From Escherichia coli (GTDB lineage: Bacteria > Pseudomonadota > Gammaproteobacteria > Enterobacterales > Enterobacteriaceae), in NCBI RefSeq assembly GCF_041886205.1, contig NZ_CP169029.1: a stretch of 64,000 bases of DNA. One strand, given 5' to 3'. Position numbers and translations under genes: made by a program. Below the pieces are notes generated by a model. It was not told where the DNA came from. It saw only the letters and a program-made list of their open reading frames with translations, and made no database searches. The first letter of the stretch is position 1, and each line of letters opens with the position of its first letter. This document shows positions 2,985-61,825 of the stretch, piece after piece.

Positions 2985-4334
2985 ATGTCTGAAATTGTTG
3001 TCTCCAAATTTGGCGGTACCAGCGTAGCTGATTTTGACGCCATGAACCGCAGCGCTGATATTGTGCTTTCTGATGCCAACGTGCGTTTAGTAGTCCTCTC
3101 GGCTTCTGCTGGTATCACTAATCTGCTGGTCGCTTTAGCGGAAGGGCTGGAACCTGGCGAGCGATTCGAAAAACTCGACGCAATCCGCAATATCCAGTTT
3201 GCCATTCTGGAACGTCTGCGTTACCCGAACGTTATCCGTGAAGAGATTGAACGTCTGCTGGAGAACATTACTGTTCTGGCAGAAGCGGCGGCGCTGGCAA
3301 CGTCTCCGGCGCTGACAGATGAGCTGGTCAGCCACGGCGAGCTGATGTCGACCCTGCTGTTTGTCGAAATCCTGCGCGAACGCGATGTTCAGGCACAGTG
3401 GTTTGATGTACGTAAAGTGATGCGTACCAACGACCGATTTGGTCGTGCAGAGCCAGATGTAGCCGCGCTGGCGGAACTGGCCGCGCTGCAGCTGCTCCCA
3501 CGCCTCAATGAAGGCTTAGTGATCACCCAGGGATTTATCGGTAGCGAAAATAAAGGTCGTACAACGACGCTTGGCCGTGGAGGCAGCGATTATACGGCAG
3601 CCTTGCTGGCGGAGGCTTTACACGCATCTCGTGTTGATATCTGGACCGACGTCCCGGGCATCTACACCACCGATCCACGCGTGGTTTCCGCAGCAAAACG
3701 CATTGATGAAATCGCGTTTGCCGAAGCGGCAGAGATGGCAACTTTTGGTGCAAAAGTACTGCATCCGGCAACGTTGCTACCCGCAGTACGCAGCGATATC
3801 CCGGTCTTTGTCGGCTCCAGCAAAGACCCACGCGCAGGTGGTACGCTGGTGTGCAATAAAACTGAAAATCCGCCGCTGTTCCGCGCGCTGGCGCTTCGTC
3901 GCAATCAGACTCTGCTCACTTTGCACAGCCTGAATATGCTGCATTCTCGCGGCTTCCTCGCGGAAGTTTTCGGCATCCTCGCGCGGCATAACATTTCGGT
4001 AGACTTAATCACCACGTCAGAAGTGAGCGTGGCATTAACCCTTGATACCACCGGTTCAACCTCCACTGGCGATACGTTGCTGACGCAATCTCTGCTGATG
4101 GAGCTTTCCGCACTGTGCCGGGTGGAGGTGGAAGAAGGTCTGGCGCTGGTCGCGTTGATTGGCAATGACCTGTCAAAAGCCTGCGGCGTTGGCAAAGAGG
4201 TATTCGGCGTACTGGAACCGTTCAACATTCGCATGATTTGTTATGGCGCATCCAGCCATAACCTGTGCTTCCTGGTGCCCGGCGAAGATGCCGAGCAGGT
4301 GGTGCAGAAGCTGCATTTTAATTTGTTTGAGTAA
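2985..4334 (+). CDS. lysC: Lysine-sensitive aspartokinase III
   Basis: 449-aa ORF MSEIVVSKFGGTSVADFDAMNRSADIVLSD..., ATG at 2985. Confidence 0.97.
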   Translation: MSEIVVSKFGGTSVADFDAMNRSADIVLSDANVRLVVLSASAGITNLLVALAEGLEPGERFEKLDAIRNIQFAILERLRYPNVIREEIERLLENITVLAEAAALATSPALTDELVSHGELMSTLLFVEILRERDVQAQWFDVRKVMRTNDRFGRAEPDVAALAELAALQLLPRLNEGLVITQGFIGSENKGRTTTLGRGGSDYTAALLAEALHASRVDIWTDVPGIYTTDPRVVSAAKRIDEIAFAEAAEMATFGAKVLHPATLLPAVRSDIPVFVGSSKDPRAGGTLVCNKTENPPLFRALALRRNQTLLTLHSLNMLHSRGFLAEVFGILARHNISVDLITTSEVSVALTLDTTGSTSTGDTLLTQSLLMELSALCRVEVEEGLALVALIGNDLSKACGVGKEVFGVLEPFNIRMICYGASSHNLCFLVPGEDAEQVVQKLHFNLFE

Positions 4335-4478
4335 TATTTCCCTACTGGCGTATAACGCTCACCAATTGTTATACGCCATCCTCACTGAAAATATAGATTA
4401 AATAATATCTGAAAAATAAAATCACTCCTGTAGAACAGTATTATAATCACCGAAAAATATTATTTAACAGGAGTGTTA

Positions 4479-5405
4479 ATGGCTACTTTAATGGAAAAAG
4501 ATGCACTTTTAAATGGCACCAGTCAGTGCATCGCGTTTTTATCAAATATCGTTGATAATTGCTCAGTTTCGTCACGTCAGGATTCAGGCGATGATCTCAC
4601 ACGATTAGTCAGCTATCGCGATTATCTTTACTCTACCCCCGCTGAACTTGTTGATTTTACACAGGGAAAGAGTCACCTTCAGCAGATTAGAACTCAATAT
4701 CAGCATGAATTCAACAATACTACGCATTCAGAAAATAAAGCATCTTTTGATTCTATTTGGCAGCGTCTGACAAATCATGAAGTCACACCGCAACAGCATC
4801 CCATTGGTTTTGTTTTAGGTGGGCAACCCGGAGCAGGTAAATCATCTCTGATTGAATTAGCCAAAAGAGAGACAAAAGATAATATAATGATTATTAACGG
4901 TGATGATTTTCGATTTCTACACCCTGATTTTAATTATATCTACCAAAATTATGGGGATGATTTTGTTACCCATACAGCGAAATTTTCCGGCGAAACGGTC
5001 GAACGTGCAATTGAGAGAGCGATAGTCAGTAAACTCAACATTGTTGTCGAAGGAACATTTCGTAATGCCGCTACGCCGTTACAAACATTAAAAAAACTCA
5101 AAGATGCAGGCTACCAAACAGAAGTCATGATAAAAACAACCTCAGCGGCATTAAGCTGGGAAAGCACCAATGAACGGTATAATAAGGACAAAGAGGCGGG
5201 AAATATTGCCCGAAAAGTGGATAAAAACCACCATGATATCGTCACCGGTTTGCTGGCAGAAAATGCCCGCAAGGTGTTTGCTTCGAACCTGTCAGATAAG
5301 TTTGCGGTGTATTCGCGTGAGAAGATGATATTTAGTTCACAAGCGGCAACGAATGACGATATTGCAACGCTTATACAGAATGAAATCAGCGGGAATACAC
5401 AATAA
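4479..5405 (+). CDS. Zeta-toxin-family P-loop kinase with ~100-aa N-terminal extension (EzeT-like single-chain toxin-antitoxin candidate)
   Basis: ATG at 4479 preceded by AGGAG (4468-4472); the ORF track starts 2 codons earlier at a GTG (4473). Walker A GGQPGAGKS at 4818-4844 and GDDFR at 4899-4913, as in zeta/PezT UNAG kinases; gene is visibly AT-rich compared with its neighbours. Confidence 0.8.
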   Translation: MATLMEKDALLNGTSQCIAFLSNIVDNCSVSSRQDSGDDLTRLVSYRDYLYSTPAELVDFTQGKSHLQQIRTQYQHEFNNTTHSENKASFDSIWQRLTNHEVTPQQHPIGFVLGGQPGAGKSSLIELAKRETKDNIMIINGDDFRFLHPDFNYIYQNYGDDFVTHTAKFSGETVERAIERAIVSKLNIVVEGTFRNAATPLQTLKKLKDAGYQTEVMIKTTSAALSWESTNERYNKDKEAGNIARKVDKNHHDIVTGLLAENARKVFASNLSDKFAVYSREKMIFSSQAATNDDIATLIQNEISGNTQ

Positions 5406-5440
5406 TAATAAGAGCTGATGGCGTGAAATAACGCCGGGCA

Positions 5441-6241
5441 TCACGCCCGGCGCATTACCGTCTGGTACATTAAGCTATCCAGTTCCTTAACGTCCCCTTC
5501 TCTGCTATCCGGTAACAGCGGTGGAATTTCCCCACGCGCCAGTTCCGCACGAATAAACGCATGTAACAATGGACGGCGCGGACCATATTCCGCTTCTCCT
5601 GCGCGCTGTTTACGTCCCAGTAATTCGTCTATTTCTGCACGTAACGGCGCATCAAGTTCACTTCCCGCCAGTAGCTCAGCAAAGCGCATTGGCGGCACGC
5701 CTTTTCCCGCTTCGACCCAGCGCACGGCCAGCAGCGGACGCAGCACGTAAAAGTATTTTTTCAGTCGAACTTCATCGCCCTGCAAATATCCGCGGAAGTT
5801 TTTCTGCGCCATCGAATAGTAATGCCAGCGCGCACGCAGCGGAGAAAACCACATTGGGACCATTGCCTTAAGCGCCGTTATCGTTTCTTCATCTTGTTGA
5901 TAGACCACCGGAGAATCCAGCCATTCTATCAGCGTCGGGTTCGCGCCTTTCAATAATCCCAGCGCCTTACGCCACTCCCAACCGGAAACATCTAACTCGT
6001 CGTCGATGGGCAGCTCGATAACATCGCGCGGCGGCTCCACCCGCAGATACCATTCCAGCGGGTGAACATACAAAAACCGTACATCGTAGTCGCTGTCGGG
6101 CGAGGCAAACCCCCAGCCGCGGCTCCCGGATTCACAGGCATACAGCACTTTCACGCCGTAGCGCCGTTCTATTTCTTTTAACTGCTGCGATACCCGTTCG
6201 CGCATCGCAGCACTGACTCCATTTAATGGCATGTTACTCAC
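5441..6241 (-). CDS. Pol-beta-superfamily nucleotidyltransferase-fold protein of unknown specificity
   Basis: 266-aa ORF from a GTG at 6241 that overlaps the upstream SPFH stop; alternative in-frame ATG at 6232. Contains GS-x10-DYDV (coding 6083-6127), the classic hG[GS]...DhDh NTase signature, plus downstream acidic residues (IELPIDDELD). Confidence 0.75.
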   Translation of the reverse strand: MSNMPLNGVSAAMRERVSQQLKEIERRYGVKVLYACESGSRGWGFASPDSDYDVRFLYVHPLEWYLRVEPPRDVIELPIDDELDVSGWEWRKALGLLKGANPTLIEWLDSPVVYQQDEETITALKAMVPMWFSPLRARWHYYSMAQKNFRGYLQGDEVRLKKYFYVLRPLLAVRWVEAGKGVPPMRFAELLAGSELDAPLRAEIDELLGRKQRAGEAEYGPRRPLLHAFIRAELARGEIPPLLPDSREGDVKELDSLMYQTVMRRA

Positions 6242-7365
6242 CCTTTGATATTAACCAACCCATGCAGAACCTGATCCAGACCGCCAAATACAGAGATGTT
6301 ATCGATCCGCTCAGCCACTCTCTCCAGCGTTTCTAGCTCTTTTAAACGCAACGCTACCGGATTGTTCTCCATGACTTTGGCGGTGTTCAGTAACGAGCGC
6401 GTCGCTGCCGTTTCTTCACGTCGGCGAATCACATTCGCCTGCGCAGATTTCTCCGCCTCAACCAGCTGCGCAAGGATATTTTTCATATCGCCAGGCAGGA
6501 CGATATCTTTCACCCCTAATGAAGCAATCTCCATACCAAATGGCAACATGCGCGATTTCACCTGTTCGCTGACAACGTCATCAATGACCTGTTTATCTTC
6601 CAGCAGTTCATCCAGCGTACGAGTACCTACCGCTTCACGCAGGGCAAATTGCAATTCCCGATACAAATGATCAATCGGCTTCGTTAACTGACTAAATGCT
6701 AATAACACGTCGCTGTAGCGCCAGTTAGCCGCGAGGTTAATCCGCAGATTGACCTTATCTTTCGTTAAGATTTCTTGCCCGCTGACTTCCAGTACCTGCA
6801 AGCGGGTGTCAACCACTTCAGTTTCAACCAGATGGTTAATTTTCCAGTACGCGGTAAGCCCCGGCGGTAACAGCGCCTGCGTTTCACCATCGATTTTCAG
6901 CACGCCTACATGCCAGGCCGGAACCTGCACCGTCAGTATCGCATCGCGGCCTTTAACAACTCCTTTGCGCCGTGGCTGTAATACCGCATTCATCACCTCC
7001 GTTTGTACCGGGACTTGCTGCGTATTCATCCGCACCAGCGTCAAATCATCCTCTACACGCCAGTACAAACGACGCGTTGATGGCAGCAGGATCTCCAGCA
7101 AAATACCGTCCATATACAACGCCCCGGCTTCAGTCTCCGACAAGTCTGCCACCAGGCAATATTTCTCCACCCAATCAGGCTGAAAGCGGCGCAAATAGTC
7201 CGCCAGCACGTCGGGAACTTCGCTACCATCCAGCGTAATCAGCAACACTTCCGGGGTATTAAACCAGGGTAAAAAATGCTCGCCTGCATGTAGCACTTTG
7301 TAGTAATCGCCGTTTCTGGAGAGTAATGCCAGCTGATCTTTTCTTACGCTTATTTTTTTAATCAT
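6238..7365 (-). CDS. SPFH/band-7 (stomatin/prohibitin-like) domain protein with no predicted membrane anchor and a ~135-aa N-terminal domain of unknown function
   Basis: 375-aa ORF, ATG at 7363-7365 with AGGAA 7 nt upstream; SPFH hallmarks (PPGLTAYWK...TKDKVNLRINLAANWRY...GMEIASLGVKDIVLPGDMK) and C-terminal coiled-coil-like AEKSAQANVIRRREE...; no hydrophobic stretch of TM length seen by eye. Confidence 0.8.
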   Translation of the reverse strand: MIKKISVRKDQLALLSRNGDYYKVLHAGEHFLPWFNTPEVLLITLDGSEVPDVLADYLRRFQPDWVEKYCLVADLSETEAGALYMDGILLEILLPSTRRLYWRVEDDLTLVRMNTQQVPVQTEVMNAVLQPRRKGVVKGRDAILTVQVPAWHVGVLKIDGETQALLPPGLTAYWKINHLVETEVVDTRLQVLEVSGQEILTKDKVNLRINLAANWRYSDVLLAFSQLTKPIDHLYRELQFALREAVGTRTLDELLEDKQVIDDVVSEQVKSRMLPFGMEIASLGVKDIVLPGDMKNILAQLVEAEKSAQANVIRRREETAATRSLLNTAKVMENNPVALRLKELETLERVAERIDNISVFGGLDQVLHGLVNIKG

Positions 7366-7893
7366 TATCTATTCCTTGCTTAACAGCCGTCGCGGAAGCA
7401 GACACGAAGCGACAGGGGAATTCCCTTTTGCCTGTTACCCGGCGTCTTTATCGGCGACGTTATCGGGGATCGCTGACTGCGCAATCCCTCATTTTTTATT
7501 TAATAAGTTACAACCAGTATTCATTTCAGGAATGAATGTGGGAATCGAACCCATAATTGGCGTCAAAGGCTGACGGAACACGCCCGGAAAACAGCCTGAC
7601 CGTTCCTGGTGTGCCGACGGGGTTTAACCCCCTTTGAAATTCAGTTTCAACGCATAGGAGTTATTGCGAGAATCGTGCCAGAAGTAAAAAAAACACCTAA
7701 TCAAATGAAAAATAAAGATTTAATAAATTATTGTTTTTTATTGGGGGAAAACTTTTCGCTAAATTTGTATCTGTATTTATCATCAATTATCAAGAAAGAT
7801 AAATATTTCAGAAGAGAATAAAGGAATATTATCAGTTCTGCTTGCAAATGAATTCCCGTACACTGAATCCATCGGCTCACTGAGGGCACCATC

Positions 7894-8166
7894 ATGGCAC
7901 TCCCCCGTATTACCCAAAAAGAGATGACTGAACGCGAGCAGCGTGAACTTAAAACACTGCTGGATCGGGCGCGGATTGCGCATGGTCGCGTACTGACCAA
8001 CTCCGAAACCAACAGCATTAAGAAAGAGTACATCGATAAATTAATGGTTGAGCGTGAGGCTGAAGCAAAAAAAGCCCGCCAATTGAAGAAAAAGCAGGCT
8101 TATAAACCGGATCCTGAAGCGTCATTTAGCTGGTCAGCAAATACGTCGACGCGCGGCAGGCGCTGA
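7894..8166 (+). CDS. yjbD: YjbD (DUF3811 family small protein)
   Basis: 90-aa ORF MALPRITQKEMTEREQRELK..., convergent and abutting rluF as in E. coli. Confidence 0.85.
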   Translation: MALPRITQKEMTEREQRELKTLLDRARIAHGRVLTNSETNSIKKEYIDKLMVEREAEAKKARQLKKKQAYKPDPEASFSWSANTSTRGRR

Positions 8167-9039
8167 TTAGCGCCCCTTCTTTTTTCGCCCCGGCGAGGTA
8201 AAACGCTTACCGTTGGACGCCGGGCGACCGCCTTTTTCCGCCGTTTTTTCCATCTTAACGACTGGGCGTTTGATGCCCGCCGTTTTCGGTTTGGCCTTCG
8301 CTTTAGGTTTTGCCTCGGAAGAGGAATTTTCGATGAGTTTAAAGAGGTCGATTAACTCATCGTCAGTTAAATCGCGCCACTCACCCAGCGGAATGCCGCT
8401 TAAACTGACGTTCATAATGCGCGTACGTTCCAGCTTTTTCACTTCGTAACCAAAGTGCTCGCACATGCGACGGATCTGACGGTTCAGCCCCTGCACCAGG
8501 GTAATGCGGAAGACAAACGGCGCTTCTTTTTTGACTTTGCACTTTTTCGTCACCGTCCCGAGGATCGGCACTCCCGCCCCCATACCACGAATAAATTCAT
8601 CGGTAATCGGTTTATCGACCGTCACCAGATACTCTTTCTCATGATCGTTACCCGCACGGAGGATCTTATTCACCAGATCGCCGTGATTGGTGAGGAAAAT
8701 CAGCCCCTGGGAGTCTTTATCCAGGCGGCCAATCGGGAACACGCGTTTGCTGTGGTTAACGAAATCGACAATGTTATCGCGCTCGCCATCTTCGGTGGTG
8801 CTGACAATACCGACGGGCTTGTTCAGGGCGATAAGTACCAAATCTTCGGCTTCCCGAGGCTCAATCAACTGACCGTTTACTTTCACAACGTCGCCGGGTT
8901 TCACCTGATCGCCAATGGTGGCTCGCTTGCCATTAAGGAACACATTGCCTTGCTCGATATAGCGATCCGCTTCGCGGCGTGAGCAAATTCCGCTTTCGCT
9001 GATGTATTTATTTAAACGGACTGATGAGTCGGGCAGCAT
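8167..9039 (-). CDS. rluF: 23S rRNA pseudouridine synthase F
   Basis: 290-aa ORF with S4 domain N-terminus ([26 protein letters not shown]) and RsuA-type catalytic core, Lys/Ala/Pro-rich basic C-terminal tail. Confidence 0.93.
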
Positions 9040-16905: not shown

Positions 16906-20797
<3,892 letters not shown>

Positions 20798-37105: not shown

Positions 37106-37155
37106 TCTTTTATCAGCGCTTACCCTGCGCTGTAACACAAAGGCTTAAGTTTCAA

Positions 37156-37203
37156 CGAGTAAAAATGACTCGCTACCCGCAGCAGGCGAGTCATTTTTAC
37201 TCG
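37156..37203. promoter_or_regulatory. Paired ZraR enhancer binding sites
   Basis: CGAGTAAAAATGACTCG (37156-37172) and its reverse complement CGAGTCATTTTTACTCG (37187-37203) between the divergent sigma-54 promoters. Confidence 0.65.
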
Positions 37204-37244
37204 TTTATCATGCCAGATTACCCGTCATATCAGCGTTTTATCGT

Positions 37245-61797: not shown

Positions 61798-61825
61798 CAA
61801 AAAGGGCATCAAATGATGCCCTTTT
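61798..61825 (-). terminator. Rho-independent terminator after tufB
   Basis: GGGCATC-AAAT-GATGCCC hairpin (61804-61821) with A-run upstream and T-run downstream on the plus strand, i.e. a T-run after the hairpin on the minus strand. Confidence 0.8.

Follow-up and report, generated by a model that had tools for sequence, protein, structure and literature searches.

The window analysed here is a stretch of 64,000 nucleotides of Escherichia coli DNA in which lysC and a gene for a zeta-type toxin follow each other on the plus strand, facing the genes of an RlaP-family nucleotidyltransferase and a slipin on the minus strand (Table 1). The lysine riboswitch lies upstream of lysC (2697-2893; Rfam RF00168, 99.5 bits). 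The spacer of about 145 nt between lysC and the zeta gene opens with a short linker and a perfect hairpin, here called H1, and then passes into AT-rich DNA that holds the promoter and ribosome-binding site of the zeta gene.

Table 1. Features in and around the lysC-ezeT spacer (positions refer to the window)
Feature	Position	Strand	Remarks
lysC (lysine-sensitive aspartokinase III)	2985..4334	+	ORF list, annotation of matching records, alignment
11-nt linker between lysC stop and H1	4335..4345	+	allele-specific, poorly conserved
Hairpin H1	4346..4378	+	12-bp stem (11 Watson-Crick pairs and a closing G-U), 9-nt loop, without U-tract
AT-rich ezeT promoter and 5' region	4379..4478	+	25% GC; literature
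Anti-Shine-Dalgarno arm CACTCCTGT	4423..4431	+	inverted repeat, upstream of the -10
TATAAT, perfect -10 hexamer without recognisable -35	4442..4447	+	inferred ezeT promoter
Shine-Dalgarno arm ACAGGAGTG	4467..4475	+	contains AGGAG (4469-4473); fully complementary to 4423-4431
ezeT, single-chain zeta toxin-antitoxin	4479..5405	+	N-terminal cis-antitoxin domain, then UDP-GlcNAc kinase domain
Hairpin H2, CGCCGGGC-atcac-GCCCGGCG	5432..5452	.	5-nt loop; overlaps the RlaP stop codon; right edge of the ezeT cassette
RlaP-family nucleotidyltransferase	5441..6241	-	PF10127, E 3.4e-95; convergent with lysC and ezeT, outside the cassette
Slipin (SPFH/Band 7)	6238..7365	-	PF01145, E 8.9e-27; first gene of the slipin-RlaP operon

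Judged by its sequence, the zeta gene of the window is ezeT, and its product is the published single-chain toxin-antitoxin EzeT: 299 of 308 residues (97%) are identical to WP_000212693.1, the accession given for EzeT in a 2023 review (PMC10532202). The protein matches the Pfam family Zeta_toxin (PF06414, E 1.5e-40, residues 101-282), carries the Walker A motif GGQPGAGKS at residues 114-122 and has about 100 residues ahead of the kinase domain. In EzeT, the C-terminal domain is a UDP-GlcNAc kinase and the N-terminal 83 residues constitute an antitoxin in cis (PMC4826407, PMC4803016). The protein is reported to be toxic once its N-terminus has been taken away; toxicity has been published as seen only below 30 °C. 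The lysC-ezeT spacer contains no plausible ORF, and hence no separate antitoxin gene. The locus has been published (Rocker and Meinhart 2015, Mol Microbiol 97:589, cited through PMC4803016, PMC10532202 and PMC4826407), and ezeT is known to adjoin lysC in E. coli B1 strains (PMC10532202). Of the nine residues at which the protein departs from the reference EzeT, eight belong to the N-terminal antitoxin domain (residues 1-82, window 4479-4724) and one to the kinase domain. In strain ESDR8 ezeT is annotated as frameshifted, and in strain PT62 the ezeT region matches as two separate segments, with an annotated IS1 transposase beneath them.

The start codon of ezeT is the ATG at 4479, behind the AGGAG of the Shine-Dalgarno arm. 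The ezeT promoter has been reported as weak, with a -10 hexamer and no -35 element (PMC4803016), and the spacer agrees with this: no -35 hexamer is found 16-18 nt upstream of the TATAAT, and a promoter scan gives no plus-strand promoter in 4335-4478. A preliminary description of this DNA had spoken of promoter-like DNA for the zeta gene, which is correct and was already in the literature. A direct repeat, ATAATATCTGAAAAATA / ATAATCACCGAAAAATA, occurs at 4402-4418 and 4443-4459 with a spacing of 41 nt; the second copy overlaps the -10, and the first might be a duplicated ezeT promoter core, weaker and further upstream.

An unfused relative of ezeT is found in another enterobacterium (contig L024, 4763-5699), where a protein of 82 amino acids overlaps the start of a zeta kinase of 232 amino acids and the pair adjoins queD and cysJI. 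The small protein is 50% identical to EzeT residues 1-80 (E 1e-27), the kinase 68% identical to the C-terminal part of EzeT, and the -10 and the TTTAACAGGAGT ribosome-binding site lie upstream of the pair at the same mutual spacing as in ezeT. From these similarities, the pair resembles the bicistronic ancestor whose fusion has been proposed to have produced EzeT. Other ezeT homologues, in Pseudocitrobacter, lie downstream of rimO and a HEAT-repeat gene. PADLOC returned no significant match for EzeT, RlaP or slipin, and no close ezeT homologues were found in phage records. A plasmid origin of ezeT was considered and set aside: the only close matches in the plasmid collection come from E. coli records of Mb size (4.8 and 1.0 Mb), which are probably chromosomal.

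The lysC junction

With a 1.5-kb query spanning the lysC junction, matches were obtained in 5424 of the 5426 complete E. coli genomes, and in 1431 of these the query aligned over its full length. In genomes without the zeta gene, K-12-type genomes, O157:H7 and Nissle included, megablast identity stops at query base 235, which is window position 4334. The lysC stop codon (4332-4334) thus holds the final position common to K-12-type genomes, and pairwise and multiple alignments with the K-12-like locus find nothing alignable past the lysC TAA. The spacer itself is present in 1433 of the 5426 genomes, in a single copy that is in every case on the chromosome and next to the zeta gene. Since identity ends at the stop codon and not past H1, the hairpin belongs to the inserted or variable DNA; it is the first feature of that DNA and not the end of the conserved lysC DNA.

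The composition of the locus changes at a different point. The 100 nt at 4379-4478 have a GC content of 25% and ezeT one of 40%, against 54.5% for lysC, 54.7% for the RlaP gene and 50.2% for slipin. The abrupt switch to AT-rich DNA that the preliminary description had noticed is therefore real. It had taken this switch as a plausible left junction of an insertion and proposed an alignment with K-12; the alignment places allele-specific DNA downstream of lysC, as expected, and K-12 shares no sequence beyond 4380, while the junction itself lies at 4334/4335, and the composition does not shift until 45 nt further downstream.

The last codons of lysC (4301-4331) differ from K-12 at 4 of 15 positions (CAGAAGCTGCATTTT as against CAAAAACTGCATAGT), with a change of Ser to Phe. 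This 3'-end haplotype is common to the allele with phage-tail genes described below and is not that of the cryptic clade of Escherichia. The variant creates a weak hairpin followed by a T-run (4301-4317), which a terminator scan flags and which is within chance expectation. A terminator inside the 3' end of lysC was rejected on this ground and for the reason that termination there would remove the stop codon.

Structure and conservation of H1 and the ezeT leader

The core arms of H1, GGCGTATAAC (4347-4356) and GTTATACGCC (4368-4377), lie exactly where they had been placed from the sequence at the outset. The hairpin had also been called imperfect, and this has to be revised: a repeat search finds arms of 11 nt, TGGCGTATAAC (4346-4356) and GTTATACGCCA (4368-4378), that are 100% complementary and have 11 nt between them. 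As RNA, the stem comprises 12 bp (4346-4357/4367-4378), the last pair being G-U, and starts 11-12 nt past the lysC stop. It folds with a dG of -15.7 kcal/mol (z = -3.77), and an equally good fold arises in 1 of 200 shuffles. In the 64-kb window there are four perfect hairpins of at least 11 bp with a loop of 3-12 nt, H1 included, where block shuffles expect 0.1. The other three lie at 37154-37205, 19527-19557 and 61800-61825; among them are one with a 20-bp stem and a 12-nt loop (AACGAGTAAAAATGACTCGC...GCGAGTCATTTTTACTCGTT), one with a 12-bp stem and one classic bidirectional terminator, AAAAGGGCATCAAATGATGCCCTTTT. Dispersed, REP-like copies of H1 do not occur in the window, and there is one H1 per genome.

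Five of the 12 pairs of H1 are G-C, so that it has the stable stem-loop of an intrinsic terminator. The U-run is lacking: the sequence 3' of the stem is TCCTCACTGAAAATA, the tail TCCTCACT has 3 T in 8, and the terminator scan, which flags the K-12 lysC site, is silent at H1, in agreement with the earlier remark that there is no U-tract. Canonical intrinsic termination is therefore not predicted, and any termination at H1 would probably be leaky. Nor is a Rho-utilisation site evident, as the 100 nt 3' of H1 (14 C, 11 G) are A/T-rich and not C-rich. H1 is thus at best a leaky terminator or a structure that protects the 3' end. A search of 4300-4520 with the covariance models of Rfam 15 at E values up to 10 gave nothing credible, the best scores staying far below the gathering scores, and the possibility that H1 belongs to a known RNA family was rejected: with gathering as well as permissive thresholds, Rfam matched only the lysine riboswitch upstream of lysC.

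Across five haplotypes the H1 stem is invariant but for a single compensatory change, A-U to G-C, at 4355/4369. This change distinguishes the stem from that of a cryptic-clade Escherichia (L007), where 2 of 24 stem positions differ and the two form one pair, as against 7 of 20 positions (35%) in the loop and 5' linker; in the linker alone, 4 of 11 positions differ. The contrast between stem and loop has a Fisher p of 0.057, the covariation is a single event, and in a pair-count covariation test it is not significant, 127 of 500 shuffles reaching the observed value. Two divergent E. coli genomes have changes only outside the stem, and a metagenome scan brought no new haplotype (22 copies of the common E. 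coli type and one unrelated match). Even in L007, hardly any change is seen in the 17 nt that adjoin H1 on its 3' side (ATCCTCACTGAAAA...). The spacer as a whole is 86% identical between E. coli and the cryptic clade; within E. coli its identity is 95% or higher across the 1433 genomes, so that invariance there says little.

A second structure lies further downstream. All nine positions of the anti-Shine-Dalgarno arm pair with the Shine-Dalgarno arm, AGGAG included, with the -10 in the loop between them; the fold-back has a dG of -16.6 and a z of -2.9. The predicted ezeT 5'UTR of 25 nt is unstructured on its own (dG -3.2, z -0.1). As the anti-Shine-Dalgarno arm is upstream of the -10, it would be carried only by transcripts with a start further upstream, such as those that read through from lysC. 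In L007, three one-sided changes keep the pairing, one breaks a pair (a C.A mismatch), and the fold does not stand out from shuffles (z -1.5); L024, the unfused relative, lacks the anti-Shine-Dalgarno arm.

Alleles and ancestry of the lysC-yjbD interval

The E. coli interval between lysC and yjbD exists in at least three alleles. The K-12 type, found in 3758 genomes, has a spacer of 252 nt with a canonical intrinsic terminator 6 nt past the lysC stop, made up of a 13-bp stem and the tail TGATTTTCTT. The allele of the window has ezeT followed by the convergent RlaP and slipin genes. The third allele has RlaP and slipin without ezeT and occurs in about 200 genomes (1641 genomes match the island, as against 1433 with the ezeT spacer); its hairpin past the lysC stop has 11 bp and no U-tract. 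In the two genomes with this allele that were examined, E. coli RS571 (L005, 27013-42728) and HN257 (L003), the position of ezeT is taken by a 15.7-kb phage-tail cluster with genes for Mor, holin, transglycosylase, sheath, tube, tape measure, gpD, baseplate, fibre and DUF4376. This cluster lacks genes for a capsid, an integrase and replication, and by its gene content it looks like a tailocin; a literature search for tailocins and lysC gave nothing relevant, and neither did one for lysC, yjbD and zeta.

The window allele and the phage-tail allele are common up to the lysC stop and common again from window 5422-5426, and the exchangeable unit therefore extends from 4335 to about 5430. Because some 200 genomes keep RlaP and slipin without ezeT, with the phage-tail cluster in its place in the two examined, the low-GC ezeT cassette is one unit. 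The right edge of the cassette is marked by H2, which in L007 has one compensatory change (G-C to A-U) and which sits where Yokenella has its single lysC/RlaP terminator. The sequence TGGCGTgaaATAACG at the right end of the cassette (5419-5433) resembles the left arm of H1, TGGCGTATAACG (4346-4357), over 12 nt with gaps. Each of the two lies 11-13 nt past a TAATA stop context, and they do not co-vary in L007; the resemblance may be due to chance or to an old duplication at the junction.

Related genomes place these alleles in a longer history. The cryptic-clade Escherichia MOD1-EC7003 has the same order as the window, lysC-ezeT-RlaP-slipin-yjbD, with an island that is 86-90% identical and flanks that are 95% identical. 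In Yokenella regensburgei, lysC is convergent with an RlaP-RtcB-Band7 operon, followed by a divergent rtcR, an SBF transporter gene and yjbD, and the 40-nt gap between lysC and RlaP holds one canonical hairpin with a U-tract. The order in Klebsiella is lysC, canonical terminator, SBF transporter gene and yjbD, and Salmonella has phage-tail (tail-fibre) genes at this locus. Given the Yokenella arrangement, RlaP, slipin and the leader upstream of slipin are older than the ezeT cassette. The comparison, with Yokenella as the one genus showing the lysC-RlaP adjacency, suggests that the ancestral lysC/RlaP spacer held one canonical bidirectional terminator and, taken with the low GC content of ezeT, that ezeT arrived as a single-gene cassette (4335 to about 5430) dropped into the short spacer between convergent lysC and RlaP; H2 would then stand where lysC and RlaP once had their common terminator, and H1 would have come with the cassette. 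The insertion proposed in the preliminary description is composite, with the cassette as one unit and RlaP, slipin and leader as older parts.

The K-12 spacer appears to have lost the slipin-RlaP region by deletion. It keeps 26 nt of the slipin leader (L001 5315-5341, corresponding to window 7432-7457; 23 of 26 identical), an alignment with a score of 20 against a mean of 13.2 (sd 1.65, maximum 19) for shuffles, and it also keeps the 130 nt proximal to yjbD. These remnants argue for a deletion derivative and against a virgin site, and the lysC-yjbD interval is accordingly better seen as an old multi-allelic variable region than as a simple insertion site.

The leader upstream of the slipin-RlaP operon is the most interesting by-product of the analysis of H1. 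It is a conserved non-coding stretch of about 300 nt on the minus strand (7366-7680), preceded by a sigma-54-type promoter, TGGCACGATTCTCGCA (7680-7665, minus strand), and containing a tRNA T-arm-like sequence, GGGTTCGATTCCC (about 7547-7559), and a long 3' helix. The leader can be aligned to the DNA between rtcR and Band7 in Yokenella (L031) and in an enterobacterial contig (L057), where rtcR is present, and RNAalifold predicts 50 pairs from four sequences, 10 of them with compensatory changes; neither Rfam nor ARAGORN gives a match. The E. coli locus of the window has lost rtcR and rtcB, and a homologue search with slipin returned only near-identical E. coli proteins. As a lead from the literature, YrlA Y RNAs are tRNA-like and are found in rsr-yrlBA-rtcBA operons; the slipin leader may be an RNA of this YrlA-like or tRNA-like kind, belonging to RNA-repair operons under the control of RtcR.

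The role of H1

All three E. coli alleles have a strong hairpin 6-12 nt past the lysC stop, a different one in each case, and only that of K-12 is followed by a U-tract. When the outgroups are included, a strong stem-loop is found within about 30 nt of the lysC stop throughout (6-12 nt in the E. coli alleles and in Yokenella). That a stem-loop is kept at this place whatever follows argues that lysC needs one at its 3' end. We consider H1 to be such a lysC 3' stem-loop, borne by the cassette and doubling as an insulator, with a probability of roughly one half. The horizontally acquired ezeT cassette would have been inserted between the lysC stop and a terminator once common to lysC and the convergent RlaP gene, and H1, as the element at its left end, would have taken over the role of the displaced lysC terminator. 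H1 would act on lysC transcription by pausing or partial termination, or else keep exonucleases from the 3' end of the lysC mRNA, and would thereby shield the toxin gene from transcription under the control of the lysine riboswitch. The fold-back could provide a second layer. Transcripts that read through from lysC would hold both CACTCCTGT and the Shine-Dalgarno arm, whose pairing is predicted to hide the ezeT ribosome-binding site, while transcripts from the gene's own -10-only promoter would start at about 4454, lack the anti-Shine-Dalgarno arm and be translatable.

It is important to weigh this proposal against readings in which H1 has no such role. H1 may be a functionless by-product of the insertion, that is, a palindrome formed at the junction by illegitimate or fold-back repair, or a sequence carried over from the donor, which persists as the cassette is young in E. 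coli. The uninformative invariance of the spacer among the 1433 genomes, the single divergent relative (L007) and the non-significant covariation test are all compatible with this, and the incomplete second left arm at the cassette's right end is what a duplication-type junction might leave behind. We nevertheless regard a by-product as unlikely, if still worth serious attention: in L007 the stem keeps full pairing through a double change where linker and loop have changed at 35%, the two arm copies do not co-vary there, and a hairpin is retained here in both of the other alleles and in all the outgroups.

Two further readings see H1 as a DNA element. As an attachment or recombination site for the integration of cargo beside lysC, it would account for the two unrelated cargos, ezeT and the phage-tail cluster, in the same slot, for the fact that both island alleles diverge right past the stop and open with a perfect, U-less hairpin of 11-12 bp 11-12 nt downstream, and for the motif resembling an H1 arm at the cassette's right end. 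With an ancestral spacer of only about 40 nt, coincident junctions are to be expected in any case. Neither allele has an integrase, transposase or recombinase, 4250-8000 holds no terminal repeats that match, whether inverted or direct, the two hairpins have no sequence in common, that of the phage-tail allele is no more than the DNA found downstream of the convergent mor gene, and other ezeT contexts (L008, L024) are without an H1-like hairpin; an attachment site is thus scarcely credible. The end of a mobile element was likewise rejected, with no terminal repeats beyond the gapped 12-nt resemblance, no integrase or transposase, and no tRNA gene (ARAGORN finds none in 4000-8300). Alternatively, the palindrome could be an operator with half-sites of 11 bp, their centres 22 bp apart, for a dimeric regulator of the weak ezeT promoter some 85 bp downstream. 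Promoters without a -35 often need an activator, a perfect palindrome does lie upstream, and the near-invariance of the adjoining 17 nt in L007 hints at sequence-specific constraint nearby. We hold an operator to be highly unlikely, however, given that the cassette encodes no regulator, that ezeT relatives elsewhere keep the -10 and Shine-Dalgarno sequence without a similar palindrome, and that a symmetric A/T to G/C change in both half-sites, as in L007, is what base pairing predicts and not base-specific contact with a protein.

A further reading differs from the proposed stem-loop and insulator in its purpose. H1 could be a deliberately leaky stop, with ezeT co-transcribed with lysC when the riboswitch opens under shortage of lysine or diaminopimelate, and with the fold-back as a conditional gate that is, for instance, sensitive to cold or to processing. 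The evidence neither specifically favours nor opposes this reading, to which we give a slim chance; if it were true, a toxin that blocks peptidoglycan synthesis would be coupled to the supply of the pathway for a peptidoglycan precursor. Insulation by H1 and the fold-back, if real, would explain how a lytic kinase gene can lie, with no separate antitoxin, directly downstream of a strongly regulated biosynthetic gene, and would be a modest addition to the biology of EzeT. The ezeT gene, its neighbourhood and its promoter type have already been published, and H1 is an ordinary kind of element that will not surprise the specialist. The main value of the analysis is for annotation: the ezeT cassette extends from 4335 to about 5430, and H1 belongs to it and not to lysC.

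The published ezeT locus is the closest known counterpart of the window, with the same gene (97%), lysC as neighbour in B1 strains and a -10-only promoter. A hairpin, an anti-Shine-Dalgarno fold-back and cassette limits are not mentioned in what three reviews (PMC4803016, PMC10532202, PMC4826407) relate of EzeT, the original description of 2015 standing outside this comparison. The intrinsic terminator of K-12 lysC (L001 5241-5272, plus its tail) resembles H1 in being a strong stem-loop (13 as against 12 bp) 6-12 nt past the same stop. The two have no sequence similarity, the K-12 terminator has a U-rich tail where H1 has none, and H1 is part of the ezeT cassette. Stem-loops without a U-tract can mark the processed 3' ends of mRNAs after Rho-dependent or inefficient termination. 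By analogy, H1, a stable hairpin without U-tract directly downstream of a stop codon, could be of this kind, although no C-rich, G-poor tract is visible downstream of it. Fold-back inhibition of read-through translation was reportedly described in IS10/IS50 by Davis, Simons and Kleckner in 1985. In these elements an inverted repeat spans their own promoter, so that only transcripts entering from outside carry both arms and have their ribosome-binding site sequestered. The ezeT locus differs in that ezeT is not a transposase gene, its cassette lacks transposon ends, its helix is weakly conserved and the effect is putative; in its geometry, the ezeT fold-back (4423-4475) is the same as that of IS10/IS50.
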